Source of the DNA: a virus
DNA length: 64,000 nt
IMG/VR virus record: IMGVR_UViG_3300045988_121909
Strand: one strand, 5' to 3'
In this document: in pieces, positions 28,879 to 61,672 of the stretch
Position numbering within the stretch: the first letter of the stretch is position 1
Layout: the number at the start of each line of letters is the position of its first letter
Notes under the pieces: generated by a model
Told to the model about the DNA's origin: nothing
Database searches by the model: none
What the model saw: the letters and a program-made list of their open reading frames with translations, nothing else
Made by a program: the position numbers and the translations under genes

Positions 28879-28902
28879 AGAAGTACAACTAAATAAAAAG
28901 AG
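28879..28902 (+). promoter_or_regulatory. conserved 24-bp motif AGAAGTACAACTAAATAAAAAGAG (copy 1 of 10) upstream of the recombinase gene
   Basis: Exact consensus copy, about 35 nt before the ATG at 28939. Confidence 0.5.
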
Positions 28903-28938
28903 AGCGCAAGAGTGCTCATTAACAGAAAGGAATTTTTA

Positions 28939-30084
28939 ATGGCAAGTATTTTATCTATTGCAAAAAAGCTAAACAAGATGTATGACGAAGAGATATGCAT
29001 CAGAGGTGACGTAATACCTAAGGTTAATTTTATGCCTACAGGTGCATTAGCTGCAGATTACTCTCTCGGTGGAGGTTTTCCAAAGGGACGTATAATTCAA
29101 ATCTCAGGTAGACCTCACGCAGGTAAGACGACTCTTACTTTTACTGCTATCGCAGCTTATCAGCGTGAGAACCCAGATTCAATGTGTGTATACATAGACG
29201 TAGAGCACGCGATTGATATTGATTTTCAGTGCGCTATGACTCACGTCGATAGAGAAAAGCTTATCTATGTAAGTCCTACAAGAATGGGCGCAGAGGCTAT
29301 CTTTGATATGGTTCTTGAAATGCAAGAGGCTGAAGACATCGGAATGATTGTTATTGATAGTGTAGCAGCGCTAGCGTCAACAAGACAGCTTAATGCTGAT
29401 ATAGAAAAAGATTTAGGTCAGGCAGGTAATATTGCTAAGTCTCTACATAACTTCTGTAGACAGGTACAAGATTTAGTGTATTACAAGAAAAACATTCTTG
29501 TACTTATTAATCAGACAAGAACTACACCTCTCCCTAATGGTGCTCTCTCATTCAGTGAACCTGGTGGTACAGCAATGGGCTTCTATCCTTCTTTGAGTAT
29601 TAGATGTGGTACAAGAAAGTTTATTAACAAGAGTGGTGCTGAGACAACTAATGGTGAAGACGCAATCGGTTTTAAGATTGTATTCAATATCTTTAAAAAT
29701 AAAGTAAGTAATATTTCAAGAGGTGGTGGTTATATTACTTATAAATACGACACAGGTATTGACACTTCTTCTGATGCTATTGATATTGCTATTAAAGCTG
29801 GTTATATTAATAGACCGACTAATGTAACATACCAGATTGTTGATTTAGAAACAGGAGAGATTCTTACTGTCGATGGTACTGAATGCAGTTTCAGAGGTAA
29901 GCCTGCGCTTGTAGAATTCTTTAATACACATCCTGAGTTTACACAGGAGTATGTAAAAAAGATAAACAACGCTCTTGCAGGTAATAAAGAAGTAAATCTT
30001 GAATTACTTGATAAAGACGTGCTTGATGAATTACGTGCTGAAGAGAATAGTGTAGAGAATAACAACGTTAAAGACAATGAGTGA
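28939..30084 (+). CDS. RecA/UvsX-family recombinase
   Basis: Walker A GRPHAGKTTL in RecA-like context (KGRIIQISG); Walker B IVIDSVAAL; length 381 aa. Confidence 0.8.
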   Translation: MASILSIAKKLNKMYDEEICIRGDVIPKVNFMPTGALAADYSLGGGFPKGRIIQISGRPHAGKTTLTFTAIAAYQRENPDSMCVYIDVEHAIDIDFQCAMTHVDREKLIYVSPTRMGAEAIFDMVLEMQEAEDIGMIVIDSVAALASTRQLNADIEKDLGQAGNIAKSLHNFCRQVQDLVYYKKNILVLINQTRTTPLPNGALSFSEPGGTAMGFYPSLSIRCGTRKFINKSGAETTNGEDAIGFKIVFNIFKNKVSNISRGGGYITYKYDTGIDTSSDAIDIAIKAGYINRPTNVTYQIVDLETGEILTVDGTECSFRGKPALVEFFNTHPEFTQEYVKKINNALAGNKEVNLELLDKDVLDELRAEENSVENNNVKDNE

Positions 30085-30092
30085 TTATAGTG

Positions 30093-30127
30093 CACTGTAG
30101 TATTTTTACTGCAGTGCATTTTTTTTT
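30093..30127 (+). terminator. rho-independent terminator followed directly by a GTTTACA promoter (30128-30159)
   Basis: Hairpin gtgcactgtagta-ttttt-actgcagtgcac followed by a T9 run. Confidence 0.65.
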
Positions 30128-30183
30128 GTTTACATTTATATAACCTTAGTGATATAATAAATTCATATCACGGAGGTATTATT

Positions 30184-30735
30184 ATGACAGCACTAAGACA
30201 AATATCTTTTCAGTCAAGAGCTAAAGACAACAAAGATGTAGAGAACTTTAAAATTAGAAAAAAGTTTAAGCTAGTGACAGATGAAGAGTTTGAAGATATT
30301 GAAAAACTAAAGAAAGAATTTGATGAATTCGTACAACAAGGCGTTAAAGGTGAGACTTGTAGATTCTATGCAGCATTCAACACTATCGATGAAGAAGTTT
30401 TAAAGAAAGCTCTAGTAGTTAAGCTACTAACAGACGAAAACGTGAAACTTAAGAATATCAATAACACACTTATTTCTCTTAGTATGACAAGTAAGCTACT
30501 AACTAAAAAATGGTTGTTTGATTTTGACTCTACTGATGAAAGTCTGCTTGTAGAATTCTTTAAAGACTTATACAAGATTTTTAAACCTATAGAAATTGAA
30601 GTATGCAAAACTCCAAACGGTTATCATATTGTAACAGCGCACGGATGTGATACACGTGAACTACTAAAAGATAGACCGCATATCGAAAACAAGCGTACAG
30701 ACGGAATGAGACTTGTAGATTACAGAAAGAAGTAA
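30184..30735 (+). CDS. hypothetical protein (183 aa)
   Basis: ORF with RBS (acggaggt). Confidence 0.5.
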   Translation: MTALRQISFQSRAKDNKDVENFKIRKKFKLVTDEEFEDIEKLKKEFDEFVQQGVKGETCRFYAAFNTIDEEVLKKALVVKLLTDENVKLKNINNTLISLSMTSKLLTKKWLFDFDSTDESLLVEFFKDLYKIFKPIEIEVCKTPNGYHIVTAHGCDTRELLKDRPHIENKRTDGMRLVDYRKK

Positions 30736-30737
30736 AG

Positions 30738-31790
30738 ATGCTTAAAGAATTAGAGATTTTTAAGAAAGAACTACAACCTTATACTGATAGAGCATATTTC
30801 GTAGGCGGTTGCGTAAGAGACGAATTCTTAAGCAGAGCTTGTAAAGACATTGATATTGAAGTATTTGATGTTGAGCAAGAAACTCTTGAAAAGATTTTGA
30901 ATATCTGCGCAGAAAAGCTAGGTTTCAAAGAAGTAGAGCTAGTAGGTAAGCAGTATGGCATCTACAAACTTGGTGAGCTTGATATTTCTATTCCTAGAAT
31001 TGAAACTAAGACTGGTGATAAGCATACTGATTTTGAGTGTACTCTTTGCCCTACTCTTCCTGTAGTAGACGCTCAGAGAAGAAGAGACTTTACTGTAAAT
31101 GCTATTTATAAAAACATCTTTGACGGTAGCATCGTTGATAGTTTTAATGGAATCTCTGATATGAGTAAAAGAGTTATAAAACATATTGATGATAAGACTT
31201 TCATTGAAGACGCATTGAGAGTTTTTAGAGCAGCAAGATTTTCATCAGTGCTAGATTTTGAAATAAGCGAAGAAACAAAGGCACTATGTAAAAAGATTAA
31301 TCTATCAGCTCTGCCTACAGAGAGAATAGTTCAGGAAACTAGCGCAGCTTTGATTAAGTCAGATACTCCAAGCGTATATTTTAAAACGCTACAAGAAATT
31401 ATCTCTGATTTTGACACTATCTTTGGTGATATTGATTTTTCTGAAATAGACAGTGTAGTAAAAGACATAAACATTATGTACGCATTTTTGTACAAAGACG
31501 CTGACGTGATTCCCGATATGATTAAGTCTACTAAGCAGAGAAAACTGATTGAGCTATCAAGAATTACAGACGAAGTACAGCTTTTCAAAGTATTTCTAAA
31601 AGACAGAGAAGTTACAAAGCAGTACACAATTCTTAGAGGCATAGATTATACAGAAAAATTTAGCAAAATAAAAGCGCCTACAGGCTCAGAGATTATGAAA
31701 AAGTATAGTATTGATAAGCCATCAGCAGAAGTTGGCATACTGCTTGAAAAAGAATACAAAGAACTATTGAAGGAGAAAGAAAGTGAATAA
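30738..31790 (+). CDS. tRNA nucleotidyltransferase (CCA-adding enzyme) head/neck domains
   Basis: Pol-beta-like motif YFVGGCVRDEFL...DIDIEV (GGxVRD and DxD), typical of class II CCA/poly(A) polymerases. Confidence 0.7.
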   Translation: MLKELEIFKKELQPYTDRAYFVGGCVRDEFLSRACKDIDIEVFDVEQETLEKILNICAEKLGFKEVELVGKQYGIYKLGELDISIPRIETKTGDKHTDFECTLCPTLPVVDAQRRRDFTVNAIYKNIFDGSIVDSFNGISDMSKRVIKHIDDKTFIEDALRVFRAARFSSVLDFEISEETKALCKKINLSALPTERIVQETSAALIKSDTPSVYFKTLQEIISDFDTIFGDIDFSEIDSVVKDINIMYAFLYKDADVIPDMIKSTKQRKLIELSRITDEVQLFKVFLKDREVTKQYTILRGIDYTEKFSKIKAPTGSEIMKKYSIDKPSAEVGILLEKEYKELLKEKESE

Positions 31791-32313
31791 CTTTACAGAA
31801 CTAATACACAAGCTAGAAGATTTAAAGCTATACCGTCAGAGTAGAGTAAACCGCTGGCAGTTGAGAGATTATATGTTTACTCAGAATGACGCAGAGCATC
31901 AGTTGTTTGTAAGTCAGATTGTAGTTTATCTTGCTGATTTACTTTGCATTCCTGATGAAATTACTTTTGCAGCATTGAAATATGCTTGTGTACACGATTA
32001 TGTAGAAAGCGTAGAAACTAGCTTAGGCGATGTTAATTATATGATTAAAGAAAAGAACCCTGAGCTAAAGGCTCTTGTAAAGAAATTAGAACGAGACGCT
32101 ATGCAAACAGTGCCTGCTTTTTATGGGGCTATGGAGAATTGCGAAAAGGTTGAAGACGCAATGACTCTTGTAAAACTAGCTGACGCACTTGATGCGCTAC
32201 TCTATACTCGTAGAGAAATACGCCATAATAAAAATGACGATGAGTGGAATCAGATTGAAAGAGAAGCGTCAGAGCGTGCAGAAGAGCTGCTGAGAAAACT
32301 ATGCGAGGAGTAA
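31783..32313 (+). CDS. HD-domain phosphohydrolase
   Basis: H...HD...D pattern (AEHQL, CVHDYVE, DALDAL). Overlaps the stop of the CCA-enzyme gene. Confidence 0.55.
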   Translation: MNNFTELIHKLEDLKLYRQSRVNRWQLRDYMFTQNDAEHQLFVSQIVVYLADLLCIPDEITFAALKYACVHDYVESVETSLGDVNYMIKEKNPELKALVKKLERDAMQTVPAFYGAMENCEKVEDAMTLVKLADALDALLYTRREIRHNKNDDEWNQIEREASERAEELLRKLCEE

Positions 32314-32315
32314 TT

Positions 32316-32699
32316 ATGCATTTCACAATAGATGGTAGATTGCCTAATCTCAATGAATATACGCGTGCTAACAGACATAATCGTTTTGCTGGCGGTAGTA
32401 TGAAAAAGAATACAGAGCAGCAGATACTAGAGTGTATACATAAAGCTGTTGAAGAGGGTACACTAGCAAGAATAGATAACTACCCCGTGCATATCAATTA
32501 TAAGTGGTATGAGCCTAACAACAGAAGAGACGCTGATAATGTATCTTTTGCTAAGAAATTTATTCAAGACGCGCTTGTTACTGCAGGCATCTTAGAAGAT
32601 GACAGCCGTAAGTTCGTAAAGAGTTTTTCAGACATAGTAGAAACTGACAAAGAAAACCCAAGAGTTGAAGTTGAGCTTATTTCAATAGAGGGTGAGTAA
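32316..32699 (+). CDS. rusA: RusA-like Holliday junction resolvase
   Basis: GRLPNLNEY...DADN...QDALVTAGILEDD pattern matches the RusA family; ~128 aa. Confidence 0.55.
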   Translation: MHFTIDGRLPNLNEYTRANRHNRFAGGSMKKNTEQQILECIHKAVEEGTLARIDNYPVHINYKWYEPNNRRDADNVSFAKKFIQDALVTAGILEDDSRKFVKSFSDIVETDKENPRVEVELISIEGE

Positions 32700-33068: not shown

Positions 33069-33095
33069 TGTGCCGTATAAGGTACATTTTTTTTT

Positions 33096-33125
33096 GTTTA
33101 CATCTCTTCGTATGTTTGTTATAAT
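33096..33125 (+). promoter_or_regulatory. promoter GTTTACA-N17-TATAAT
   Basis: gtttacatctcttcgtatgtttgttataat, after a T9 run. Confidence 0.55.
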
Positions 33126-33153
33126 AGTCATATAAATAAAAGAGGAGATTATT

Positions 33154-33492: not shown

Positions 33493-33510
33493 TAACAAGG
33501 AGTAAAAACT

Positions 33511-41964: not shown

Positions 41965-42516
41965 TTGATTTATTTTACAAGTGATTTACATTTAAATCAT
42001 GATAGAGATTTTATCTATGGCGTAAGAGGTTTTAAGTCTATTGACGAGATGAATGAAGCTATAATCAAAAACTGGAATAAGACAGTGAACGATTCTGATA
42101 CAGTCTGTATTCTTGGCGATATTATGCTTGGTGATAATAAAGAGAGTATTGAATTATTCAATAAGCTTAAAGGACAGAAGTTTATTGTACTGGGTAATCA
42201 CGACACTTCAGATAGAGCAAAGATATATGCTAAAGCACCAAGCACAACAGTGCTATGATATGCTCATTTAATAAAGATTGATAAACAGCAATTTTATCTT
42301 AGTCATTATCCTTCAATAATACGAGATGATATTTCGCGTTTTAAACTAAAGCATAGCGCAATATGTCTATTCGGTCATATTCATCAGGATGTGAAGTTTT
42401 ATAATGACTACCCGTATGTTTATCACATAGGCTTAGACGCACATAATCTCACACCAATAGCTTTGCGCGATATAATTGATGATATTAAAGCAGAATTGCA
42501 TAAGAGGAGTATATAG
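41965..42516 (+). pseudogene. calcineurin-like metallophosphoesterase gene interrupted by one in-frame TGA (42256-42258)
   Basis: N-terminal part (DLHLNHD, LGDIMLGD, LGNHD) and C-terminal part (LSHYP..LFGHIHQD..HIGLD) are in the same frame, separated only by TGA. Pseudogene, sequencing error or stop-codon readthrough. Confidence 0.55.
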
Positions 42517-42517
42517 A

Positions 42518-44849: not shown

Positions 44850-45419
44850 ATGTTAGAAAATATACTACACGAAAACTTAAATAATTTATACGCTGTAGAA
44901 GATAACTTAGACGAAGAATACTTTACTCAACTTGAATATTGCTATCTTAATCTTCTTGAAGGTCTATGTAATTATGAATTTGTCATAGACTTTTGTCTAA
45001 AACATAACATAAAGAGTATCACAGACATCGGTACAGCGTGTTCAGTACAAGGTAATCTGTTTAATAAGTTTGACATTGAGTACAACGCAATTAATGATTC
45101 AAGACGTGAAACACAGGATATTTTTGTAAAGTTTAACTCTTACCAACAAGCGCATTATGGCGTAAATTCAGTAAACACCGATAAAGATTCACTCGCTGTA
45201 GCTATTTTATCTTTAGGTTGGGATTGCTACGCAAACAGAGAACAGAGAAATCATCAGTACGAATGCTTATCAAAAGATTTTAATGAAGCATTACTTTACA
45301 TCCCTAAAGAAGAGATAGAGCACATACGAAAGTATTTTAAATGTGTTAAACTATTGACAAATTGTAAACCATTGACAGGTTGTTTTGTTTACGCAAGCAA
45401 TACTCAGAAGTATGTATAA
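44850..45419 (+). CDS. hypothetical protein (189 aa)
   Basis: Preceded by a GTTTACA promoter (44796-44825) and RBS (aaggagat). Confidence 0.5.
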   Translation: MLENILHENLNNLYAVEDNLDEEYFTQLEYCYLNLLEGLCNYEFVIDFCLKHNIKSITDIGTACSVQGNLFNKFDIEYNAINDSRRETQDIFVKFNSYQQAHYGVNSVNTDKDSLAVAILSLGWDCYANREQRNHQYECLSKDFNEALLYIPKEEIEHIRKYFKCVKLLTNCKPLTGCFVYASNTQKYV

Positions 45420-45430
45420 AGAGGTACAAA

Positions 45431-47242
45431 ATGTTTAATTATAAAGAAGCAATAAGGGAATTAAATAAGCACACAGAGTTATATGATTCTGGCACTCCAG
45501 TACTTTCAGATAAAGAATGGGACGATTTATATTTTCAAGTAGTAGAATATGAAAAGACTCATACTCCTGATAAAGATTCACCTACGCAGAATATTCACTC
45601 TAATACATTGAATAAAGTAGAGCATTCTACTCCTATGCTTTCTTTAAAGAAAACAAAAGATATTGAAGAAGTAAAGAAATTCTTTAAGAATAAAGACATT
45701 ATTGCTATGGCAAAGCTAGATGGCTTGACTTGTAGATTAACATATAAGAATGGTAAGTTATTCAGAGCAGAGACTAGAGGAAATGGCAGAGTAGGTGAAG
45801 ATGTTACGCATAACGCTATGCTTATACACAATATCCCTAAATCTCTACCTTATGATATTGTAGTTGAAGGCGAAGTTATTTGTAAATACTCTGATTACAC
45901 TGGTTCTTCTAATGTAAGAAATTACGCTGCAGGTAGTATGAGACTTAAAGTTGCAGAGCAGAGAAATTTATCATTTATCGCTTTTGATTTAATCTCTTCT
46001 GATAAGTCATATTCTCTACTATCTGAAAAGCTATATGATTTAGGTAGAGATTTTGAAGTAGTGCCTTATAGATTTGATTTTGATACAGAGGCATTAAGAG
46101 AACAATGTGTTGATTTACCTATTGACGGCCTAGTTTATAAGATTAACAATATTAAAGAATATGAGAGCTTAGGCAAAACAGAACATAGTCCTAACGCTGC
46201 TTTAGCTTTTAAATTCTATGACGAGCTTTATGAAACAGAGTTGCTAGATATTATATGGACACAAGGTAAGACAGGTAATCTTACTCCTGTAGCGAAGTTT
46301 AAGCCTGTTATTATTGATGGCACAAATGTTCAGAGAGCTAGTATGCATAATCTTGATATAGTAGAAAAGATATTACGTACACCGAGCGTTGGGCAGAAAG
46401 TTTATGTGTGTAAAAGTAATATGATTATTCCTCAGATTCATCACGCAGGCGAGTCTACAAACAAGATTATTGAAATTCCAACAATTTGCCCTGACTGCGG
46501 CTCTGAATTAAAAATCGATACAAAAGGAGTAACACAGCTCGTATGCGTAAATAAACATTGTCCTGCTAAGATAAAGAATAAGTTAATTAGATTTGCAGGT
46601 AAACAAGCGTTGGATATTGAAGGCATCTCTAACTCTACTATTGAGAAGTTGATTAAGCTAGGTTGGTTAACTTGCTTATCAGATTATTTTAAACTCTATA
46701 CTCACAAAGAAGAGTGGTTGCAGCTTGATGGCTTTTCCGATGTTTCTGTAGATAAAATTTTAAATAATATCCCTAAAGAGATAGAGCTATGGAAATTAAT
46801 CGCTAACTGTGGTTTAGAAAATATCTCTAAGCAAACAGCAATAAAGCTAGTTGATTATTTTAATGATTACTCTTCTTTTAGAAAAGCTATTGATGAAAGA
46901 TTTGATTTTTCTCAGATACCTGGTATCAGTTCAGGCATTTCTAATACACTGCTAAACTTTGATTATTCAGAATTAGACGAAGTGCTTAACTGCATCAAAG
47001 AAGTACAACTAAATAAAAAGAGCGGGAATGTAAAAGTTTGTCTAACAGGCAAAATGAGCAAAGCAAGAAAAGATATAGTTAAATTTTTAGAAGAGCATAA
47101 CGCTGAAGAAGTTGCTATAAACAAAGCTAATTTTCTTGTTTGTAACGAACCTAACTCAAGTAGTAAGTATAAGAAAGCAGTGCAATTAGGCATAAAGATT
47201 ATAACTGAAGAAGAGTTGTACGCTAAATTGAACGTTAAGTAA
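45431..47242 (+). CDS. ligA: NAD-dependent DNA ligase (LigA-type)
   Basis: Adenylation motif AKLDGLTC (KxDG), Cys4 zinc finger CPDCGSEL..CVNKHCP, HhH region and C-terminal BRCT-like domain (KVCLTGKMS). Length 604 aa. Confidence 0.85.
   Translation: MFNYKEAIRELNKHTELYDSGTPVLSDKEWDDLYFQVVEYEKTHTPDKDSPTQNIHSNTLNKVEHSTPMLSLKKTKDIEEVKKFFKNKDIIAMAKLDGLTCRLTYKNGKLFRAETRGNGRVGEDVTHNAMLIHNIPKSLPYDIVVEGEVICKYSDYTGSSNVRNYAAGSMRLKVAEQRNLSFIAFDLISSDKSYSLLSEKLYDLGRDFEVVPYRFDFDTEALREQCVDLPIDGLVYKINNIKEYESLGKTEHSPNAALAFKFYDELYETELLDIIWTQGKTGNLTPVAKFKPVIIDGTNVQRASMHNLDIVEKILRTPSVGQKVYVCKSNMIIPQIHHAGESTNKIIEIPTICPDCGSELKIDTKGVTQLVCVNKHCPAKIKNKLIRFAGKQALDIEGISNSTIEKLIKLGWLTCLSDYFKLYTHKEEWLQLDGFSDVSVDKILNNIPKEIELWKLIANCGLENISKQTAIKLVDYFNDYSSFRKAIDERFDFSQIPGISSGISNTLLNFDYSELDEVLNCIKEVQLNKKSGNVKVCLTGKMSKARKDIVKFLEEHNAEEVAINKANFLVCNEPNSSSKYKKAVQLGIKIITEEELYAKLNVK
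46999..47022 (+). promoter_or_regulatory. 24-bp motif AGAAGTACAACTAAATAAAAAGAG (copy 2) embedded in-frame inside ligA
   Basis: Exact consensus copy encoding KEVQLNKKS in the linker before the BRCT domain. Confidence 0.4.
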
Positions 47243-47361: not shown

Positions 47362-48561
47362 ATGGAAGTAATACGCAACTGCCCAGTATGTAATAAAGAG
47401 TTTAATGCAAAACGTGGACTATCTTCATATTTAAGTAAAACTTGCTCAAGAAGTTGTGCAGGTAAATTAAGTACTAAAGAAAAAGTATTTAACTGTAGTA
47501 AATGTAGCAAAGAGTTTAAACGTTATAATTATGAAAAACAAGATTTATGTATAGAATGTTTTAACGCTGAAAAGAATTGGAATAATTTTTGCTTAAATTG
47601 TAAAGTACGCAAAACCTCTTCAGAAACAAGTGATTTTTGTTCTGAACAGTGTCAAAGAGCTATGAATAAACAAGCTAAAGTAAAAAAGATTCATTATTGT
47701 ATAGAATGCGGACAGCGTTTTCAATCTTATGGAGATGCTAAGTTCTGTTCCTCTTCTTGTAGAAATACTCATACACGTAAAAATATGACGTATAAACCTA
47801 GAGAATGTATTTACTGCGGGAATATATTTACTCCTACCTCTTCATCTCAGAAAGTTTGTACTGATTTTCATACAATAGAATGCAAATATTGCAGTAAAGA
47901 AATAAAGTTGCAAGGCACTATCCCTAAGAATAAGCATTTCTGCGATAGAGTGTGTCAAACATTATATCAGCATAAATCATCTTTAAATTTAAAATTATTA
48001 GATGAGTATAAAAATGCTAATGATTGGGCTAAGAAATTTGAGAATAAAAGAAAGCGTAAACCTAATGCAGTAGATTTTAAAGATTATTTTGGAGTAAATC
48101 TACCTAAATGGGTTGATTATTCTAATTTTGCTAAGAATACAACTAAGTCAAGATTAGAGCAAAAAGTCTTGAATTATATAATAGATAATTTTGAACTAGC
48201 AGTAGAAATAAACAGAAAAATTCTACCTGTTACAAAATACAAACAAGAAATTGATATACTATTGCCTGACATACAATTAGGCATTGAAGTGCAAGGCAAT
48301 GCTACTCATAGTAAAGTTGAAGGCGAATTCCCAATGGAACTTTACGGAGGTGCTCTTAAATCTACTCCAGCAGATTTTAAAAAGAAACAAAAAGCTGCAG
48401 AGGAATTAGGCATCACTCTAATAGAAATATGGGAAGATGAAATAGAAAACAATAGCTTTAAAAAAGAGCTATCATGTTTAATAAACGAAAGGATTGTAGA
48501 TAAAATATGGCAAGAAAGAAAGTCACTGAACACTATTCTGCTGAAAACATCACATCTCTAA
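47362..48561 (+). CDS. homing-endonuclease-like protein with multiple zinc ribbons and a C-terminal nuclease domain
   Basis: At least eight CxxC pairs and a CSRSCA module like the other HE-like genes. C-terminal DILLPD..GIEVQG..H...E motif. Sits between ligA and the topoisomerase genes. Confidence 0.55.
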   Translation: MEVIRNCPVCNKEFNAKRGLSSYLSKTCSRSCAGKLSTKEKVFNCSKCSKEFKRYNYEKQDLCIECFNAEKNWNNFCLNCKVRKTSSETSDFCSEQCQRAMNKQAKVKKIHYCIECGQRFQSYGDAKFCSSSCRNTHTRKNMTYKPRECIYCGNIFTPTSSSQKVCTDFHTIECKYCSKEIKLQGTIPKNKHFCDRVCQTLYQHKSSLNLKLLDEYKNANDWAKKFENKRKRKPNAVDFKDYFGVNLPKWVDYSNFAKNTTKSRLEQKVLNYIIDNFELAVEINRKILPVTKYKQEIDILLPDIQLGIEVQGNATHSKVEGEFPMELYGGALKSTPADFKKKQKAAEELGITLIEIWEDEIENNSFKKELSCLINERIVDKIWQERKSLNTILLKTSHL

Positions 48562-50987
48562 CAGATGTAGAGCATCTTAAGAAAAAGATTAACTTAACGT
48601 TTGGTAGAGAAACAGGTGATGCTGAGCACCCATACTCTCTGCAGAAAACAGTGTCAATCAGAGAAATTATTGATAACAGCGTTGGCGAAATCATAAGAAA
48701 TTTTGCAGATAGAATTGAAGTAACATTCGATAATGATGGTTTTGTAACAGTGCTTGATAACGGTAGAGGTTTACCTATTGACACTGCTACTGACGCATTA
48801 GGAAATGAAGTAAATGGTTTTATTATTACTCTTGGAACTCTTCGTTCTGGTGAGAATTTAGGTAGTAATTCATCTGGTGGTAAGAGTACATCTCAAAACG
48901 GTTTAGGAGCATCTGCTGCTTGCGCGTTATCTGAGAGAGTAGATATTGAAGTTTATAGAAACAATAAAATCTATTACATGTCATTTAAAGATTTTGTACC
49001 AGGCTATTTTAATGATGAAGATGAGTTTAAGTCTTTAAAGAATAAAGCCACTCTAAAATCAAGAAAAGATGATAGAGCAGAGTATTATAAGACTAATTTT
49101 CCTACAGGTACTAAGATAAGAATTAAGCTTGATGATAATATTTTCTCAAGCCCTTACCCTGTAGACGTAGATGATTTAAATGATAGACTTAAAGGTGTTA
49201 GTTATCTTTTACCTAAGTCTCATATTAAAGTAATTGATAACTTTAAGAATAATGCTGAGTATGAGTATTACTCTGAGAATGGTTTAAGAGACGCACTGCC
49301 TGAAGGCGCAGATGTTGTAGAGTTCACTACCTCTAATGATTATCTTGAGAAAAATGTTGCAGTAATGACTGATAGTGCTATTCAGCATAAAGATTTAATT
49401 CGTACTGTTGATATAGAGCTTGCATTTTGCTACGCCGATGAGAGTAACGTAGATACATACGTAAACACTATAAAAACACGACTAAAAGGTGTACATCTAC
49501 AAGCTTTTGAAGACGCTCTTGCAGATTCATTTAACTCAGAGATTAAAGGTAAAGATAAGCCTAATGCTGAAGATTATAGAGAAGGTTTAAATCTACAATT
49601 ATCTGTGTTTATTCCAGACCCTCTATTCTCTGGACAGACAAAAGAAGAGCTTGCAGGTAAAGAAGTAAAGAACGCTATCTATGACGCAGTAAAAGCAGAG
49701 CTAATGAAATTTATTTCTACGAAAGAAAATTCGTCTATTGTAGAAAAGATTACATCAAGAGCTGTTACAATGATGCAAGCTAGAAAATCAATCGCTGATA
49801 GTAAGAAAGTAGCAAAAGAAAAGCTGAAATCTGATATTAACGGTATGCGTAATAGAGTTGAGAACTTTATCGACTGCAGAAGTAAAGACTCAAGTAAAAA
49901 AGAACTGTATATAGCAGAGGGTGCATCAGCACTTGGTTCATTGAAGCAAGCAAGAAACCCTGAGTATCAAGCTTTATTCCCTATTAGAGGTAAGATTAAG
50001 TCAGTATATAAGACAAGTGTTACAGACGCGTTAAGCAGTCAACTTATAAAAAATATTATTCAGCTTGTCGGTACAGGCGTAAATACAAAAACTACAAAGT
50101 GTGATTTAAGTAAGTTAAATTTTGACAAAATTATATTTGCGCACGATTCAGATGTTGATGGCTGTTTTTCTGGAAATACAAAAATTAAATCAACTGATGG
50201 TAACATTTATACTTTTGAGCAGCTTATACAAGATAAGATTACATCAGTTGGAGTATATGCTAAAGACAAAAATGGAAATATAGTTCAAGCAGAAGGCGTA
50301 TTCCCTAGAGTCACAAAAGAGGTTAATGAGCTAATAGAACTTGAATTTGAAAATAAATTTAAAGTTAGATGCACTCTTGACCATTTATTCTTATTGGACT
50401 CAGGTGAGTATAAGGCTGCTATGTGTTTAACTACTGATGATTTGATTAGTTCAGAGTCTGGCAAATGCAGAATTTTAAACTCTACGATAATACACTTAGA
50501 CGAACCTATTAAAGTGTATGACATAACTGTTCCTGAGTATGGTAGCTTCCTAATCAGCACTTCAAATGATAATACAGAAGGTGTATTCGTACATAACTGT
50601 CATATCAGCTCTTTGCTTTTAACTCTCTTTTATACTTTTATGCCAGAACTTATAAAAGACGGGCACGTTTACTCATTACAAACTCCATTATTTGAGATTG
50701 TGTATAAAGACAATACAAAAGCATTTGCGTATGATGAACAAGAAAAGATTAAGCTCACGAAAGACAGAGACGTAAAGAAAATAATGCGTAATAAAGGTCT
50801 TGGTGAAATCTCAGCTGAAGATATGGCACTTTGCTTAAATGAAAGCACTCAGAGATTAGTAAGATTTACAATGGAAGACGCTAAACACGCTGCTAAATTC
50901 ATAGAATTATTTATGGGCAACGATTCTAATGTAAGAAAAGATTACATTACTGAACACGCAGATGAATATGAATTAGATTTTGAATAA
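48507..50987 (+). CDS. DNA topoisomerase II large subunit (T4 gp39 / GyrB-like), intein-containing
   Basis: GHKL ATPase N-terminus (YSAENI..EH..K, NG.GLP), Toprim region (EGASA, FAHDSDVDG) and C-terminal GyrB-like tail. Host-protein continuity DVDG|CHISSLLLTLFY is restored after removal of the 145-aa insert. Confidence 0.8.
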   Translation: MARKKVTEHYSAENITSLTDVEHLKKKINLTFGRETGDAEHPYSLQKTVSIREIIDNSVGEIIRNFADRIEVTFDNDGFVTVLDNGRGLPIDTATDALGNEVNGFIITLGTLRSGENLGSNSSGGKSTSQNGLGASAACALSERVDIEVYRNNKIYYMSFKDFVPGYFNDEDEFKSLKNKATLKSRKDDRAEYYKTNFPTGTKIRIKLDDNIFSSPYPVDVDDLNDRLKGVSYLLPKSHIKVIDNFKNNAEYEYYSENGLRDALPEGADVVEFTTSNDYLEKNVAVMTDSAIQHKDLIRTVDIELAFCYADESNVDTYVNTIKTRLKGVHLQAFEDALADSFNSEIKGKDKPNAEDYREGLNLQLSVFIPDPLFSGQTKEELAGKEVKNAIYDAVKAELMKFISTKENSSIVEKITSRAVTMMQARKSIADSKKVAKEKLKSDINGMRNRVENFIDCRSKDSSKKELYIAEGASALGSLKQARNPEYQALFPIRGKIKSVYKTSVTDALSSQLIKNIIQLVGTGVNTKTTKCDLSKLNFDKIIFAHDSDVDGCFSGNTKIKSTDGNIYTFEQLIQDKITSVGVYAKDKNGNIVQAEGVFPRVTKEVNELIELEFENKFKVRCTLDHLFLLDSGEYKAAMCLTTDDLISSESGKCRILNSTIIHLDEPIKVYDITVPEYGSFLISTSNDNTEGVFVHNCHISSLLLTLFYTFMPELIKDGHVYSLQTPLFEIVYKDNTKAFAYDEQEKIKLTKDRDVKKIMRNKGLGEISAEDMALCLNESTQRLVRFTMEDAKHAAKFIELFMGNDSNVRKDYITEHADEYELDFE
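50163..50597 (+). other. mini-intein (145 aa) inserted in the Toprim DxDxDG-HI motif of the topoisomerase gene
   Basis: Begins with Cys (CFSGNTKI, block A), has block B TLDHLFL, ends VFVHN followed by Cys+1. In frame; no homing-endonuclease domain. Confidence 0.8.
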
Positions 50988-55853: not shown

Positions 55854-56453
55854 ATGATTTATGATAATGACAAATTCACTAAACAACTTAAAACATTTCT
55901 AAATGCAATTGGCGGAGTACAAATTGCTGACGATAGAAGCTTTATTAACGAAGATTGCTATATGTACGCAGCTTTTGAATTTAATGGGAATGAAGAAATA
56001 TTCTGTGGAAATATACCATCAAATAGATATGATGCAACATTAAATAAAATTTACATAGACAAAGACAAAAGAGGTTATCCACTAGATGAGTTGATTAATT
56101 TTTACACTGCTAAGATTGATTTGTTAAACAGTGAATACAAAGATTTATTACTCAAAACAGACATGGAGTTTGGTAAAGATTATGTAAATGGGTTTAACGT
56201 CATTGGCTGGCGTAAAAAGATGTCGTATAGTAGTAATTTTAAATACTCTGACATTTTTACGCAATGTAGCGTTAAGCTAGTAAAATTTATCAATGAAAAT
56301 TCTCAGTTAGAAGAATGTCGTAGATGTTGGCAATCTACTGAAGATTCTAACATTCTGTTAGTTAGTTCATTAGGGTTTAACTTCTTAATCTTAATCGATG
56401 ATTTAGCAGAAAGCCTGCATACGCAGGTAAGCGAGATTACAAAATTGATGTGA
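55854..56453 (+). CDS. hypothetical protein (200 aa)
   Basis: ATG at 55854 after agagagagataaaca. Upstream in-frame ATGs overlap the previous gene. Confidence 0.45.
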   Translation: MIYDNDKFTKQLKTFLNAIGGVQIADDRSFINEDCYMYAAFEFNGNEEIFCGNIPSNRYDATLNKIYIDKDKRGYPLDELINFYTAKIDLLNSEYKDLLLKTDMEFGKDYVNGFNVIGWRKKMSYSSNFKYSDIFTQCSVKLVKFINENSQLEECRRCWQSTEDSNILLVSSLGFNFLILIDDLAESLHTQVSEITKLM

Positions 56454-56454
56454 A

Positions 56455-56478
56455 AGAAGTACAACTAAATAAAAAGAA
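56455..56478 (+). promoter_or_regulatory. 24-bp motif copy 3 (AGAAGTACAACTAAATAAAAAGAA)
   Basis: About 15 nt upstream of the ATG at 56493. Confidence 0.5.
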
Positions 56479-56660: not shown

Positions 56661-56676
56661 AAAGGAAGATTTTTCA

Positions 56677-57660: not shown

Positions 57661-57732
57661 TATATAGAACGAAATTTAATCTAACTGACGAAATAGTTAG
57701 TGCTGACAATGCAGAAGAGTATATGAATTACG

Positions 57733-58086
57733 ATGCTAATATACAAGATTACATCGAAAAAAGAAGACATACGTGCTAAAGTCTACAAAATTGAATTTGT
57801 ATTCAACAGGCAAAATTACAAATCAGGTCATATTAATGTATACACTAATGAAAAGCTTGATGATGCGCAGCTTAAATATCTAAGTAGTTTCCTAAAAGAT
57901 GAAGTGTTTAACGGATACGGTAAAGATTTTAGCTCAGAAGAATTCGCTAATTACGACGCAGCGTTGTATGACTGTTATTGGAGTTTCTGTCCCGAAAGAG
58001 CTTGGGAAGATGATTACGAAGAAGAAAGAGTAATCTCCAGATTTTGTCCGTCTGACGAGTACGTGCTTGAACTTGTTAGAGATTGA
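57733..58086 (+). CDS. hypothetical protein (117 aa), possibly the 3' part of a frameshifted gene starting at 57658
   Basis: A 40-aa ORF (57658-57777, MIYRTKFNL...) overlaps in another frame across an A6 run (cgaaaaaagaag). Confidence 0.4.
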   Translation: MLIYKITSKKEDIRAKVYKIEFVFNRQNYKSGHINVYTNEKLDDAQLKYLSSFLKDEVFNGYGKDFSSEEFANYDAALYDCYWSFCPERAWEDDYEEERVISRFCPSDEYVLELVRD

Positions 58087-58092
58087 TGTTTT

Positions 58093-58130
58093 GCTCTCAG
58101 ATATTTAACTTCTGAGAGCTTTATATGTTT
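58093..58130 (+). terminator. terminator formed by a short palindromic-repeat copy
   Basis: gctctcaga-tatttaact-tctgagagc (9-bp perfect stem) followed by tttatatgtttt. Confidence 0.6.
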
Positions 58131-58287
58131 TATTCATAAACCGTTATTTCATTTTCATACTAGCTACCAGTAAAGTTAGTAACAAAAACTATATAGCAAA
58201 TCAAAGATAAAGGGGTGACGTTCTACGAGCCGTGACTACAACAAAATAAGAGAATTAAGAAAAGCAACACAAGAGCGTCACGCTCAA

Positions 58288-59454
58288 ATGACTTGTAAAG
58301 CATTCGAGCTTAAATCACTAAGTCTAAGCTTTCTAAATATCAAAAAAGAAATGCTAACTAAATTCTTTAGGCAAGCGAATTATATTTATAACAGTTTAGT
58401 TGCTGATAGTAAAAAATTTAAAACTACTGACAAAGAAATTACTATTTTATGCGGTGACCATTATGAAATTAGGCGACTTGATTTAGGTTCCGGCATTAAG
58501 CAAGGTATTCGTGATAAATTTATCACTAATTGCAAATCTTTAAAAGGTAAAAAAGATAGTGGTGATAAAATTGGCAAGCTAAAGTTTAAATCTTATACTA
58601 ACGCTATTCCACTTAGGCAATACAAAAATACTTATAATATAAATTTTGATAAAAATACTATTAGAATACAGTGTATTAAGCAAGCATTTAAAGTTAGAGG
58701 TTTAAAGCAAATACCTGAGAATGCTGAAATATGCAATGCTGAACTTATCCGTAAAGCAAGTGGGTACTATATACACGTAGTCATTTTTGTGCCTAAAGAA
58801 AATAAACAAGCAAATAGCAGACAAATTGGTTTAGATTTTGGGATAAAATCTAACGTCACATCGTCTAATGGTGAAAAATATGATGTTAAAGTACCTGAGT
58901 CTAAAGGGACAAAATTAGCATCTCGTAAAACGAATCATAAAAAGAAAGGTTCTAAAAATAGGCAAAAAGCCCAACAAAAGCTAAGAATAGCTTATGAAAA
59001 AGATACAAATAGGAAATTAGATAAAGCTAAGAAGTTAGTTTCATATCTAGACTCTTATGATTTAATAGCATTTCAAGATGAAAATATAAAAGATTGGCAT
59101 AAAGAGTTTGGAAAAGTCGTACAGCATTCAGCTATGGGGTTCATAAAAGCAGTTTTGAAGACCAAAGCAAATTCCATAATGATAAGTAGATATTTTCCAA
59201 GTACTCAAATATGCTCAGTTTGCAGTAAGCTAACACCTCACTCTCTGAATAAGCGAGATTATGACTGTAGCTTTTGTGGTTATCACCACGATGACAGAGA
59301 CGTGAAAGCAGCACAAACGATTCTTGATTATGTAAATGTCTCTCTGGGACGGAGAGCAAATAGTCTTGTGGAGTTAAAGACCTCTGCGCTTAAAGATTTT
59401 TCTTCAAGTATAAGTCTAGACTATGAAGCAGGAAGACCTTACTCTCTAGAGTAA
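58288..59454 (+). CDS. tnpB: IS200/IS605-family TnpB (OrfB), full length, second distinct copy
   Basis: 388 aa; RuvC-I region LDFGIKS, RuvC-II IAFQDEN, zinc finger CSVCS..CSFCG, RuvC-III HHDDRDVKAAQTIL. Its 3' flank is unrelated to the omega-RNA-like repeat at 567-682. Confidence 0.8.
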   Translation: MTCKAFELKSLSLSFLNIKKEMLTKFFRQANYIYNSLVADSKKFKTTDKEITILCGDHYEIRRLDLGSGIKQGIRDKFITNCKSLKGKKDSGDKIGKLKFKSYTNAIPLRQYKNTYNINFDKNTIRIQCIKQAFKVRGLKQIPENAEICNAELIRKASGYYIHVVIFVPKENKQANSRQIGLDFGIKSNVTSSNGEKYDVKVPESKGTKLASRKTNHKKKGSKNRQKAQQKLRIAYEKDTNRKLDKAKKLVSYLDSYDLIAFQDENIKDWHKEFGKVVQHSAMGFIKAVLKTKANSIMISRYFPSTQICSVCSKLTPHSLNKRDYDCSFCGYHHDDRDVKAAQTILDYVNVSLGRRANSLVELKTSALKDFSSSISLDYEAGRPYSLE

Positions 59455-59538
59455 TGGTTAGTCCACGCTCTCTACCTCTACTAATTATCTCAACCTTGAC
59501 GTGTTGTAGAGGCTTATTCAACTAATAGAGATATAAAA

Positions 59539-59562
59539 AGAAGTACAACTAAATAAAAAGAG
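59539..59562 (+). promoter_or_regulatory. 24-bp motif copy 4
   Basis: Exact consensus copy 85 nt after the tnpB stop. Confidence 0.5.
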
Positions 59563-59578
59563 AAAAGGATGCTAAATA

Positions 59579-59635
59579 TAGCTCTGAGATATACTCCAGA
59601 CGAACGAGATTGACTTCTGAGAGCTTTTCATGTAT
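59579..59635 (+). repeat. palindromic intergenic repeat (short form) with terminator-like hairpin
   Basis: agctctgagatatactccagacgaacgagattgacttctgagagct followed by tttcat. Confidence 0.55.
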
Positions 59636-59715
59636 TTATTGTAAAAACTATCACTAATCAAAAACTTATTGTCAGAAGTAAAATCTGACGCAGAAGATTA
59701 AAGAGAGGTAATATA

Positions 59716-59955
59716 ATGCTTAGATTTGCAAGAGATGTGGTGTATTGCAGCATCAATGATTTAGATGAGAGCATCACAGAAAAAATACTAGAAGAGAATG
59801 GTTTATTCCTTAAAGGCGATATTGTCTATATTAAAGCAGGTACTAAATTCGAAGTGCCTAATGAGCAGATGTTTGGCGCGCCTGCAATTATTATAAATGG
59901 TGAGTTAGTTTTATCATTTACAACTGATACACCTATTGAAGTGTATATTGACTAA
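59716..59955 (+). CDS. hypothetical protein (79 aa)
   Basis: ORF with RBS (agagaggta). Confidence 0.45.
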   Translation: MLRFARDVVYCSINDLDESITEKILEENGLFLKGDIVYIKAGTKFEVPNEQMFGAPAIIINGELVLSFTTDTPIEVYID

Positions 59956-59956
59956 A

Positions 59957-59980
59957 AGAAGTACAACTAAATAAAAAGAG
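59957..59980 (+). promoter_or_regulatory. 24-bp motif copy 5
   Basis: Exact consensus, directly after the stop of the 59716 ORF. Confidence 0.5.
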
Positions 59981-60030
59981 TGTGAGAAGAATCCGTATAA
60001 TGTTATTCCAGTGAGTAGTATTACAGAAGT

Positions 60031-60136
60031 GCTCTGAGATATACTCCAGACGAACCAGAGTCGTCTCTCGTAAACTTTTATGCTCTTTTAATAATAATTA
60101 CCGCTTAAGACGAAAATTATTCTCAGAAGTTAAAGG
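60031..60136 (+). repeat. palindromic intergenic repeat element (long form), direct copy of 39694-39801
   Basis: gctctgagatatactccagacgaaccagagtcgtctctcgtaaacttttatgctcttttaataataattaccgc..tctcagaagttaaagg. Confidence 0.6.
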
Positions 60137-60290
60137 AGAACTTGGTGAAAAAGATTACAGAGTTTATGTCTAAAGTACCGCTGAGTGTTAGACTACTTGT
60201 TAGTTTTGCACTATTATATGCATTTGGTATTTTTGGCTTTATGTTAAGGACGTCAGATTTTACTTACGCTGAATTTTAATTTTAAAAGTT

Positions 60291-60500
60291 GTTTACAGAT
60301 TAATTGTTTTGTGTTATAATACAAACTATATTCTACAAAAATACGTTCCTTTTCTCTATAAGTTTTGAATCAAGATTTACGTATCGTAGAATTTATACAC
60401 TGCAAAAATATGTTCCTTTTTGGTAAGTATTTTGATTAAAGATTTACATATCGCAGTTAGTTAAGGCGCTCAGCTTAAGAGAGCGTCTTTTTTTTTTGTA
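60291..60500 (+). ncRNA. candidate small non-coding RNA locus (promoter, two ~68-nt tandem repeat units, terminator), no ORF
   Basis: GTTTACA-N17-TATAAT at 60291-60320. Units ctacaaaaatacgttccttttctctataagttttgaatcaagatttacgtatcgtag and ctgcaaaaatatgttcctttttggtaagtattttgattaaagatttacatatcgcag. Terminator gcgctc-agcttaaga-gagcgtc followed by a T11 run at 60469-60500. Confidence 0.45.
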
Positions 60501-60501
60501 A

Positions 60502-60525
60502 AGAAGTACAACTAAATAAAAAGAG
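60502..60525 (+). promoter_or_regulatory. 24-bp motif copy 6
   Basis: Exact consensus, 16 nt upstream of the ATG at 60542. Confidence 0.5.
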
Positions 60526-60541
60526 CGCAAAGGAGAAATAT

Positions 60542-60949
60542 ATGCTCGTAAAAAGAGATTATGAAGTTGAGCTTGTAGATAGACAAGCAAATGACGAAGT
60601 ATATGAACTTGTCGGAGTATTCAATTTTGAAAATGATACTCTGCAAGGTATATTTGAGTCTAAATTAATTAATTATCATGATTTTTATATCGATGATAAT
60701 GACAACGAAATAGAAATCAATGCCAAAATAAAAGTACGCATAAAAGCAAGTGTAAGTCTTGATACACCACGTGCAGTAAATGAGTATAGCTTGAATAATT
60801 TAGTTATACTACAAGTTGATGTTGACAGCCCAGAAATCTTAGAGTGGATAACTGATTCAATCAATGATTATTTCACTTATGACGAGTACAGTTATTCAGC
60901 GCAAGCTGTTTTTACTGTACGCTTGAATGCAAAAGAATATCACTTATAA
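60542..60949 (+). CDS. hypothetical protein, paralog family A member 4
   Basis: MLVKRDYEVELVDRQANDEVYELVGVFNFENDTLQGIFESKL. Confidence 0.5.
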   Translation: MLVKRDYEVELVDRQANDEVYELVGVFNFENDTLQGIFESKLINYHDFYIDDNDNEIEINAKIKVRIKASVSLDTPRAVNEYSLNNLVILQVDVDSPEILEWITDSINDYFTYDEYSYSAQAVFTVRLNAKEYHL

Positions 60950-60950
60950 A

Positions 60951-60974
60951 AGAAGTACAACTAAATAAAAAGAG
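60951..60974 (+). promoter_or_regulatory. 24-bp motif copy 7
   Basis: Exact consensus immediately after the stop codon at 60949. Confidence 0.5.
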
Positions 60975-61020
60975 TGAGAGTAGTAGTAATGCTACTCTTT
61001 TATTGTAGTGCAATACATCA

Positions 61021-61140
61021 TTTTTATAATGTATGTTTAAATTCCAACATTTGCGTATGCTTAGTCGTTTTTACTATGATGGTTGGAATGAAATTGTTGA
61101 TTGATTGTTTTTAAATTATATATTTTAAAATAAGAATTAA
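61021..61140 (+). repeat. ~100-bp intergenic repeat, copy A (copy B at 63727-63840)
   Basis: Shared blocks aattccaacat.ttg.gtatgct, ttact.tgatggttg..atgaaattgttg.ttgattgtttt. Confidence 0.5.
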
Positions 61141-61148
61141 TTATTTAT

Positions 61149-61172
61149 AGAAGTACAACTAAATAAAAAGAG
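61149..61172 (+). promoter_or_regulatory. 24-bp motif copy 8
   Basis: Exact consensus, 10 nt upstream of the ATG at 61182. Confidence 0.5.
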
Positions 61173-61181
61173 AGAAATAGA

Positions 61182-61406
61182 ATGTTTGAGAAATTACGAG
61201 AAATATTAAACGCATACGCAGATAAAGGTTATGCTGAAATTAAATATGCAGGTGTAGATTATCTAATTCTCTGTAAAGAAAGTCTCAAAGTAGATAGTTT
61301 CACATATCACAATAATGAGCTATGCGTTTGTCTTGAAGATTATGATAATTATAATGTTGTGCCTGTTAGATTCATCACTGAGATTGATGATAAGAAGTGC
61401 AACTAA
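61182..61406 (+). CDS. hypothetical protein (74 aa)
   Basis: ORF after gagagaaatagaatg; the C-terminus overlaps 24-bp motif copy 9. Confidence 0.45.
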   Translation: MFEKLREILNAYADKGYAEIKYAGVDYLILCKESLKVDSFTYHNNELCVCLEDYDNYNVVPVRFITEIDDKKCN

Positions 61407-61416
61407 ATAAAAAAGG
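61393..61416 (+). promoter_or_regulatory. 24-bp motif copy 9 (variant AGAAGTGCAACTAAATAAAAAAGG)
   Basis: Two mismatches to the consensus; 11 nt upstream of the ATG at 61427. Confidence 0.45.
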
Positions 61417-61426
61417 AAGTACACAG

Positions 61427-61666
61427 ATGATTATGGAAAGAAACACAGCGAAAGCTGTCTTAGATATCAAAGGCGGAATGCCTTATGAAACTCTTGCGAC
61501 ATACGTCGCACGTTTTTTAAAACACGAATACGGTATTTATTCAGATTTCGAGTATTGCGTAGATTATTGCGATTTTTACACGCCAGATATGCTTGATGAC
61601 TGTAAATATAGTGATGAATTATACAAAGAAGTAAAACAGTATTTTAAAAGAAGTACAACTAAATAA
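61427..61666 (+). CDS. hypothetical protein (79 aa)
   Basis: ATG after aaggaagtacacag. Confidence 0.45.
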   Translation: MIMERNTAKAVLDIKGGMPYETLATYVARFLKHEYGIYSDFEYCVDYCDFYTPDMLDDCKYSDELYKEVKQYFKRSTTK

Positions 61667-61672
61667 AAAGAA
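61649..61672 (+). promoter_or_regulatory. 24-bp motif copy 10
   Basis: Overlaps the end of the 61427 ORF. Followed by terminator-like hairpin agagc-tgtgtatt-gctct and a T8 run (61678-61700). Confidence 0.45.

Follow-up and report, generated by a model that had tools for sequence, protein, structure and literature searches.

Whole gene cassettes are gained, lost and replaced exactly at the copies of a 26-bp motif that recurs in a 64,000-nucleotide stretch of DNA (hereafter the window) from the IMG/VR record IMGVR_UViG_3300045988_121909. The window (GC 33%) makes up the final 64 kb of a metagenome scaffold that is 190,663 bp long and comes from a human sample, and the carrier is a ~190-kb phage-like element of human-associated Gram-positive bacteria. 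The exchange of cassettes, which emerges from comparison of the window with its relatives, is the best-supported statement that can be made about the motif, although a preliminary description of this DNA had mentioned a recombination site only as an aside. As to what the motif does, its placement and conservation suggest a promoter of a second class, read by a putative element-encoded factor or polymerase, and we put the chances of this reading at about even.

Results

The motif is a nearly invariant 26-bp block on the gene strand

When up to three mismatches were allowed, the 24-mer AGAAGTACAACTAAATAAAAAGAG gave ten matches in the window, all on the + strand, as are all the genes here. The matches start at 28879, 46999, 56455, 59539, 59957, 60502, 60951, 61149, 61393 and 61649. 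These are the ten positions that had been listed before, but the number of exact copies had been put at eight and is seven, as the copies at 56455 and 61649 have A rather than G as the final base and that at 61393 has three mismatches. No match of the 24-mer was obtained across 100 dinucleotide-preserving shuffles of the window. Alignment of the copies also extended the motif, for two further A residues on the 5' side of the 24-mer are conserved and the true conserved block is thus the 26-bp AAAGAAGTACAACTAAATAAAAAGAG.

A logo built from 54 distinct contexts holds ~41 bits inside the 26 bp and essentially zero outside. The sole freely varying position is base 15 of the 24-mer (A, C or T), which varies also between orthologous sites. 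Searches with shorter cores and more mismatches found no degenerate intermediates, and the motif family is all-or-none, in contrast to ordinary promoters. The motif is predicted to be unstructured (minimum free energy of 0) and lacks self-complementarity. A literature search for the motif string returned unrelated primer sequences only. Matches to 20-mers in Flavobacterium orientale, a Psychromonas metagenome-assembled genome and several short metagenome contigs were set aside as chance occurrences, the flanking conserved bases and any homology being absent.

The genic setting of the copies is much as it had been portrayed. The stop codon of the upstream open reading frame (ORF) either abuts the motif (offset of -1, 0 or +1) or lies inside it (+14 at 61393 and +18 at 61649), and start codons follow 9-16 nt 3' of the motif at 56455, 60502, 61149 and 61393, 36 nt 3' at recA and 41 nt 3' at the 61649 copy. 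When all distinct sites are taken together, ~17 of 29 have a start codon 3-16 nt 3' with a Shine-Dalgarno (SD) sequence directly after the motif, and about one-third are without a nearby start codon.

The motif is genome-wide and conserved across diverged lineages

Exact-word scans of close relatives found 18-21 motif copies per genome, always on the gene strand. In 20 clusters of orthologous sites the proportion of variable columns was 18% in the upstream flank and 9% in the downstream flank, versus 1.5% inside the motif. The motif is also found well beyond the close relatives. Lineage C differs greatly from the window (RecA 63% identical, the homologue of the 670-aa ORFan 44% identical and coding DNA at ~66% nucleotide identity), and the same motif, without any difference, stands 14 nt before its recA and at five sites in the 8.6-kb contig L079. 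Lineage D retains the copy inside ligA. More distant relatives (RecA 42-47% identical) had no such motif, and L075 and L077 are among the relatives that lack it. The identical motif in a lineage as diverged as C indicates neither a recent local duplication nor a neutral repeat, and confinement to a recently duplicated segment, which the preliminary description had raised against its own proposal, is not what the genome-wide copies and the ~66%-identical lineage show. Judged from this pattern of conservation, the motif is strongly selected.

Cassettes are gained, lost and replaced at motif copies

A cassette map was made by cutting the homologous regions of relatives at the motif copies and clustering the pieces. 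With M denoting a motif copy, the order in the window is A-M-L(+IS)-M-C-M-D-M-E-M-F-M-G-M-H-M-I. Cassette E is missing along with one motif copy in three relatives (L016, L050 and L003). Conversely, a cassette of ~600 bp with two small ORFs, P, is present only in L016 and L052, where it is flanked by two copies at the place of copy 56455, which stands alone in the window. The relatives hold F, Q or M' alternately between D and G. At the junctions the flanks match on the outer sides of the paired copies.

Cassette G is shared with the distant lineage B, in which ligA is 30% identical to that of the window. The occupied site in this lineage (L029, L073 and L074) reads ligA stop codon, motif, G, motif and a gene of 179 aa, whereas the empty site (L031, L051 and L058) reads ligA stop codon, motif and the 179-aa gene. 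Such a pair of sites, the empty one with a single copy and the occupied one with two, is the signature of recombination at a repeat. The genes carried by the cassettes are likely to act in host interaction or anti-defence.

The simplest mechanism for such movement would be homologous recombination between identical direct repeats, whole genes being inserted, lost or swapped at the copies because all copies are identical. Alternatively, an excised circle consisting of a cassette plus a motif could integrate at another copy. Whatever its biochemical role, the motif marks points of gene entry and exit and so provides a list of mobile cassettes and a means to track their exchange between lineages. 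An unusual arrangement was seen in L052 (4682-4871), where an inverted motif copy lies 146 bp from a direct one, at a coverage of 2.4x, and fuses otherwise distant regions. This is probably an assembly chimera formed at the repeat, although it could be a real inversion.

Two copies lie within genes

The ligA copy (46999) is in frame, as had been noted, and encodes KEVQLNKKS (aa 540-548) just before the BRCT domain (Pfam, aa 550-614). Four related genomes and lineage D retain it unaltered, with both flanks variable (L003, L014 with T as the last base, L037 and L080). A second in-gene copy is located in a 438-aa ParA-like gene, where it likewise encodes KEVQLNKKS in an interdomain linker and is not followed by a start codon. 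The KEVQLNKKS frame is the sole stop-free frame of the three in the motif. We rejected the idea that the ligA motif is an extra 27-bp insertion, as a 30%-identical ligA has a linker of equal length.

A BRCT-only product of ligA had been named as something to test for. The first in-frame ATG after the motif (47054) falls within the first strand of the BRCT domain, and together with the lack of a start in the ParA-like gene this makes shorter proteins unlikely. The in-gene copies might instead be tolerated internal promoters or recombination junctions.

A candidate promoter of a second class

Promoter function is the likeliest reason for the conservation of the motif. It would then be a portable, strand-specific 26-bp expression signal that heads single-gene or small-RNA cassettes, its 26 positions being kept identical bar one both at orthologous sites and across diverged lineages. 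The reader would not be the host sigma-A holoenzyme, and transcription would start near the 3' end of the motif (AAAAAGAG) to give short leaders that proceed at once to the SD sequence or that carry 5'-terminal hairpins.

At three sites that speak for this reading, a predicted strong terminator is followed by the motif only and then by an SD sequence and start codon, with no sigma-70-like site between them. These precede recA (95-nt hairpin plus U9), ORF135 (9-bp GC stem plus U10) and a 673-aa gene of L079 (10-bp stem plus U6). A further segment of L079 (192-299) is an ORF-less structured unit of ~100 nt that begins at the motif and closes with this same 10-bp hairpin plus U6 terminator. Units containing UUCCUUU have a sigma-A-type promoter at their head in the window (60292) and the motif at their head in L079, the similarity between the units being modest.

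The window locus of these units (60292-60500) resembles a small RNA (sRNA) locus and consists of a sigma-A-type promoter, two ~65-nt UUCCUUU (anti-Shine-Dalgarno-like) units and a strong terminator. Positions 1-480 of L079 (lineage C) hold similar UUCCUUU units, each with the 26-bp motif at its head.

The motif also stands in tandem with host-type promoters in both orders, the host-type promoter being followed by the motif in L011 and L013 and the motif by the host-type promoter at L079 7718 and L015 5899. Two promoter classes would readily occur in either order, whereas a 5'-leader element would not. The distinct sites that have no start codon nearby, about a third of them, also count in favor of a promoter. 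The motif has neither a -35 element nor an acceptable sigma-A -10 element, and a promoter scan scored no copy as sigma-70-type. The host-type class, G-TTTACA-N17-TGnTATAAT, corresponds to the GTTTACA/TATAAT class of the preliminary description and is real, with ~19 strong degenerate sites between 3665 and 60320 of the window, often behind terminator T-runs. The view that the motif is a second signal, distinct from this class, also holds, and the motif is oriented with the genes and has a promoter-like placement. Should it prove to be a promoter, its copies would delimit the regulon of a putative element-encoded transcription factor or polymerase and show what that factor recognizes.

Several observations weigh against a promoter. 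Terminator-like hairpin/U-tract structures come right after, not before, the copies at 60951 and 61649, which is odd unless the polymerase reads through. The copies recur every 200-500 bp in one direction, are dense at 59.5-61.7 kb and look redundant as promoters. Moreover, 41 bits are far more than a DNA-binding protein needs, and thus copying or gene conversion, and not recognition, may account for some of the identity. The terminators and the lack of other promoters on which the argument draws are pattern predictions. Finally, searches of the window and of ~250 kb of related loci, which were neither exhaustive nor sensitive and together took in roughly two-thirds of the genome, turned up no RNA polymerase, sigma factor or evident DNA-binding regulator. 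Regular expressions for T7-like and multisubunit RNA polymerases (motif A/B/C and DFDGD) gave nothing in the ~250 kb of related loci, and phmmer searches of the related loci with E. coli RpoD and RpoE likewise gave nothing. Among the matches listed from Pfam, PHROGs and NCBIfam for the 82 window ORFs and the locus proteins there was no RNA polymerase or sigma family, a comparison that is weak for divergent proteins. As the multi-protein family scans report on the 25 commonest families listed, the absence of a trans-acting factor from them is weak evidence.

A more far-reaching form of the proposal, which we think quite unlikely, is that the 26-mer is the site of dedicated element-encoded machinery, either an RNA polymerase or specificity factor of T7-like stringency in a giant element of Gram-positive bacteria or a cassette-capture recombinase that acts on a non-palindromic site. 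Accessory genes and small RNAs would then be run through an integron-like 'plug-and-express' system common to diverged lineages.

Alternative roles for the motif

Rather than starting transcription the motif could block it. An asymmetric operator or 'stoperator' bound by an element-encoded repressor would obstruct elongation or initiation and silence accessory genes during carriage, as in the cluster A mycobacteriophages, where stoperators of 13 bp, somewhat degenerate, bind a known immunity repressor and one of them overlaps the early lytic promoter (PMC9283540, PMC6550527). Both repeats are asymmetric, oriented with transcription and located in very short intergenic spaces, the motif often touching stop codons, and both are numerous (>20 stoperators per genome and ~20 motif sites). 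The in-gene copies would be harmless. However, stoperators have half the length of the motif and accept deviations from their consensus, while the motif is invariant, and a roadblock right after a strong terminator (recA, ORF135 and L079) would find nothing to block. The ORF-less motif-to-terminator unit of L079 would be left without another start signal, and no candidate repressor was found. We consider a stoperator unlikely. A signal acting in the RNA rates a little lower still. The motif would in this case be an unstructured A-rich mRNA leader or a protein-binding site that aids or controls translation of the next gene, a role in keeping with its lack of structure and with the ~17 of 29 sites that have a start codon and SD sequence close behind. 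Two motif sites abut sigma-A-type promoters placed so that the predicted transcription start is the motif's first base. The start-associated sequences (SAS/ESAS) of cluster K mycobacteriophages, which are 13 bp in length, contain the SD sequence and lie 3-7 bp from the start codon at virtually all sites (PMC3203893), similarly occur in one orientation just before the starts of non-structural genes, and the upstream stop codon is sometimes inside the repeat. In contrast to SAS, the SD sequence lies 3' outside the motif. Moreover, the sites that lack a nearby start codon are followed by hairpins, noncoding units or another promoter, a host-type promoter comes between motif and gene at L079 7718 and L015 5899, and sites right behind strong terminators would rarely be transcribed. 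No complementary RNA of at least 11 nt is encoded in ~600 kb of sampled sequence, and a role as the target of an antisense sRNA was rejected because no such stretch was found.

The cassettes could also owe their movement to a dedicated site at which a recombinase or nuclease captures and excises them in integron-like fashion, any role in expression being secondary. Integron attC sites vary by cassette, need an adjacent IntI and consist of imperfect inverted repeats whose single strands fold. The cassettes of the element share with those of integrons their extreme compactness (SD sequence, ORF, stop codon and motif), the promoterless look of single ORFs, the recurrent site and presence or absence between relatives. 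Occurrence of the same cassette at different loci in different lineages, the one-copy empty and two-copy occupied sites and the richness of the elements in HNH, TnpB and IscB genes fit such a site as well. Nevertheless, unlike attC or dif the motif has no dyad symmetry or hairpin, and no integrase or resolvase was among the families listed. Perfect identity over 26 bp suffices for homologous recombination, and the copies at recA and within genes occupy stable orthologous positions, not the ends of cassettes. We judge site-specific recombination to be very unlikely. Least probable of all is the T4-type late promoter to which the motif had been likened, in which a gp55-like sigma factor would recognize TAAATA as the core and turn on the late genes. 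In T4 the 8-bp TATAAATA at -10 is necessary and sufficient, the gp55-type sigma factor acting with gp33 and the sliding clamp. The corresponding 8-mer of the motif is ACTAAATA, which has six of the eight bases, and clamp-loader subunits are encoded by the element. The one base of the motif that varies, however, lies inside the core (TAA(A/C/T)TA), and conservation takes in all 26 bp, extending beyond the core by 13 bp on the upstream side and by 7 bp on the downstream side. Neither a gp55-like factor nor another sigma factor was detected in the sampled proteins (families listed plus phmmer). Furthermore, the motif serves recA, thyX, a dnaX-like gene and ORFans, and no virion genes at all were seen in the part of the element scanned.

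A guide function was also considered for the copy at 59539, which lies 85 nt after the tnpB stop codon. In TnpB/omega-RNA systems the guide directly abuts the right end of the insertion sequence (IS) element, whereas the IS here ends at ~59466, 70 nt short of the motif. As IS-free relatives keep the motif, this candidate was rejected, and no guide-like partial motif copy was found beside any TnpB. In Rfam searches the only families to reach the gathering score were tRNAs, and within 59400-61800 no credible match came up at E <= 1.

Comparison with other repeat systems

The closest behavioural analogue of the motif is the PeSL (promoter-early stem-loop) cassettes of T4-type phages. A PeSL is composed of a sigma-70-consensus promoter and a stable stem-loop, which is a terminator or attenuator, and is degenerate elsewhere (PMC2839356, PMC4122927). 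Excised mini-circles with a single repeat are another mark of PeSL cassettes. Both are regulatory repeats packed between a stop codon and the next SD sequence or start codon, mostly before ORFans and in hyperplastic regions, and both bound indels and replacements between close relatives. In a published parallel to the copies within the ligA and ParA-like linkers, PeSL-like sequences lie between the halves of the split gene g43A/g43B. In contrast, the motif is one invariant 26-mer that has no -35/-10 match and no stem-loop, hairpins standing beside some copies only. As it lacks the sigma-70 promoter and stem-loop that define a PeSL, the motif works like a PeSL but is not one. It is the other promoter class of the element, the T-run plus GTTTACA-N17-TATAAT sites, that looks like true PeSLs. 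The PeSL idea that identical regulatory repeats are engines of modular shuffling is thereby extended beyond T4-type phages and sigma-70-type promoters.

The promoters of single-subunit phage RNA polymerases (T7, T3 and SP6) are asymmetric, ~20-25 bp in length and present in near-identical copies with more information than sigma-type promoters. The motif resembles these in its asymmetry, its 25 invariant bases, its orientation with the genes and its high information content, but a gene for a single-subunit polymerase was not detected in the window or in the ~250 kb of related loci. The EGeRS repeats (establishment-gene regulatory sequences) of pLS20-family conjugative plasmids offer a further comparison. 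EGeRS1 sequences are 420-750 bp long, 62-95% alike and rich in inverted repeats, and EGeRS2 holds a strong promoter (PMC8708921). Like the motif, they are repeated before several variable accessory operons of a Gram-positive mobile element and end just before the ribosome-binding site, whereas the motif is 26 bp, invariant and unstructured.

Individual copies and neighboring features

The motif copies and the features beside them are collected in Table 1. Copy 1 is conserved in L001, L002 and L048 and in lineage C (L076). Copy 4 is cleanly deleted in L016, and the orthologue of copy 9 in L050 is exact. A consensus sigma-A-type (host-type) promoter (28733-28761) lies upstream of the hairpin that precedes copy 1, and this promoter plus hairpin unit (28733-28870) could be a small RNA gene or a leader/attenuator. 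The 670-aa ORFan behind copy 10 is confined to motif-bearing lineages and always has a motif copy directly upstream. It has only three homologues, belongs to no family and has no sequence match in the PDB, and a Foldseek search of the PDB with its AlphaFold model (pLDDT 57) was empty. A 583-aa ORFan likewise had no match in the PDB.

Table 1 Motif copies, cassettes and neighboring features of the window
Feature	Position	Strand	Remarks
Motif copy 1	28877..28902	+	Exact; 36 nt 5' of recA start; directly after 95-nt hairpin + U9
Motif copy 2	46997..47022	+	Exact; in frame within ligA, linker before BRCT
Motif copy 3	56453..56478	+	Ends ...GAA; heads 55-aa ORF, then thyX
Motif copy 4	59537..59562	+	Exact; then inverted-repeat element, then ORF79
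Motif copy 5	59955..59980	+	Exact; adjoins ORF79 stop codon
Motif copy 6	60500..60525	+	Exact; strong terminator on 5' side, ORF135 SD/ATG on 3' side
Motif copy 7	60949..60974	+	Exact; then 10-bp hairpin + U-tract, no adjacent ORF
Motif copy 8	61147..61172	+	Exact 24-mer, 5' flank AT; 9 nt before ORF74 (cassette G)
Motif copy 9	61391..61416	+	3 mismatches; ORF74 stop codon inside
Motif copy 10	61647..61672	+	Ends ...GAA; upstream ORF stop inside; terminator-like hairpin, then SD/ATG of 670-aa ORFan
Cassette E (ORF135, 60542-60949)	60526..60948	+	This genome only
Cassette G (ORF74, 61182-61406, 74-aa)	61173..61390	+	~83% identical DNA found in distant lineage B
Hairpin + U9	28768..28870	+	95-nt stem-loop, -26.3 kcal/mol, z = -5.2; directly 5' of copy 1
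Intrinsic terminator	60463..60497	+	9-bp GC-rich stem + U10, z = -2.7; directly 5' of copy 6
recA-like gene	28939..30084	+	Headed by copy 1
NAD-dependent DNA ligase gene ligA	45380..47242	+	Holds copy 2
670-aa ORFan	61713..63725	+	After motif copy in lineages A, C and D
Host-type promoter examples	11966, 14265, 30129, 33097, 37555, 52991		G-TTTACA-N17-TGnTATAAT
Second repeat family	6343, 39686, 47242, 54166, 59574, 60024	+	
Second repeat family	23026, 28640, 54231	reverse	

The element and its relatives

Relatives of 173-192 kb are catalogued as viral contigs in IMG/VR, occur in several metagenomes and are mutually circularly permuted. Searches of deposited phages by megablast or blastn found no close relative, and the best identity of the gyrA-like protein with proteins of phages and plasmids was 38-39%. 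The ~190-kb element family is widespread in human-associated metagenomes and is almost entirely unannotated.

The sampled gene content is mixed. A phage-like replication and repair set (the window encodes RecA, the NAD-ligase and gyrase-like subunits in addition to TnpB elements, and genes for clamp-loader subunits occur in relatives) is accompanied by type IV secretion-like genes and Gram-positive adhesin domains. The secretion-like genes encode PcfJ, ATPases of VirB4-like and VirB11/T2SSE-like type and an FtsK-like ATPase. The surface and wall genes encode an M23 peptidase, a lysozyme and SpaA, collagen-binding and T-Q-ester adhesin domains, with a sortase in a sister lineage. These secretion and surface genes were located at 42476-44707 of the window and in the loci L011, L018, L022, L057, L073 and L079. 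No capsid, portal or terminase gene was seen in the part of the element scanned, and these 'viral' contigs may in fact belong to conjugative plasmids or to hybrids of phage and plasmid. Given the mixed phage-like and conjugative content, the terms 'early' and 'late' need care.

The window carries 25 tRNA genes in several clusters and also encodes RtcB, an RNA ligase and a CCA-adding enzyme. Together (4238-21756, 14327-15520, 25744-26718 and 30738-31790) these resemble a tRNA supply-and-repair kit.

Other repeats and mobile elements

The elements carry many HNH, TnpB and IscB genes. A private IS200/IS605-like insertion in the window (57661-59466) comprises a 117-aa ORF that has no Y1-transposase match (57733-58086) and a 388-aa TnpB (58288-59454). 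The insertion is absent in L003, L016 and L050 and replaces ~21 bp that include the left arm of the post-thyX hairpin. A partial TnpB is found at 67-576 of the window, and further TnpB copies plus one IscB are present in L009, L043 and L078. An HNH homing-endonuclease gene (47362-48561) that overlaps the gyrB start separates ligA from gyrB. The lineage A relatives have this gene, and lineage D (L080) lacks it. The gyrB-like gene itself (48507-50987) contains a HINT mini-intein at ~50142-50619 that is absent in close relatives and in lineage D (the gyrB of L080 being 681 aa).

The second repeat family of Table 1 consists of intergenic sequences of ~60-100 nt that have a 9-bp closing stem (GCTCTCAGA...TCTGAGAGC) and a T-run and are found in both orientations, often just 3' of a motif copy. 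They have no Rfam match and may serve as a terminator or else be a small, mobile element with inverted repeats. There are also dispersed direct repeats of 70-190 nt that are 63-92% identical, at 558-666/3696-3804/20996-21104, 18252-18439/21974-22161 and 61070-61139/63786-63855.

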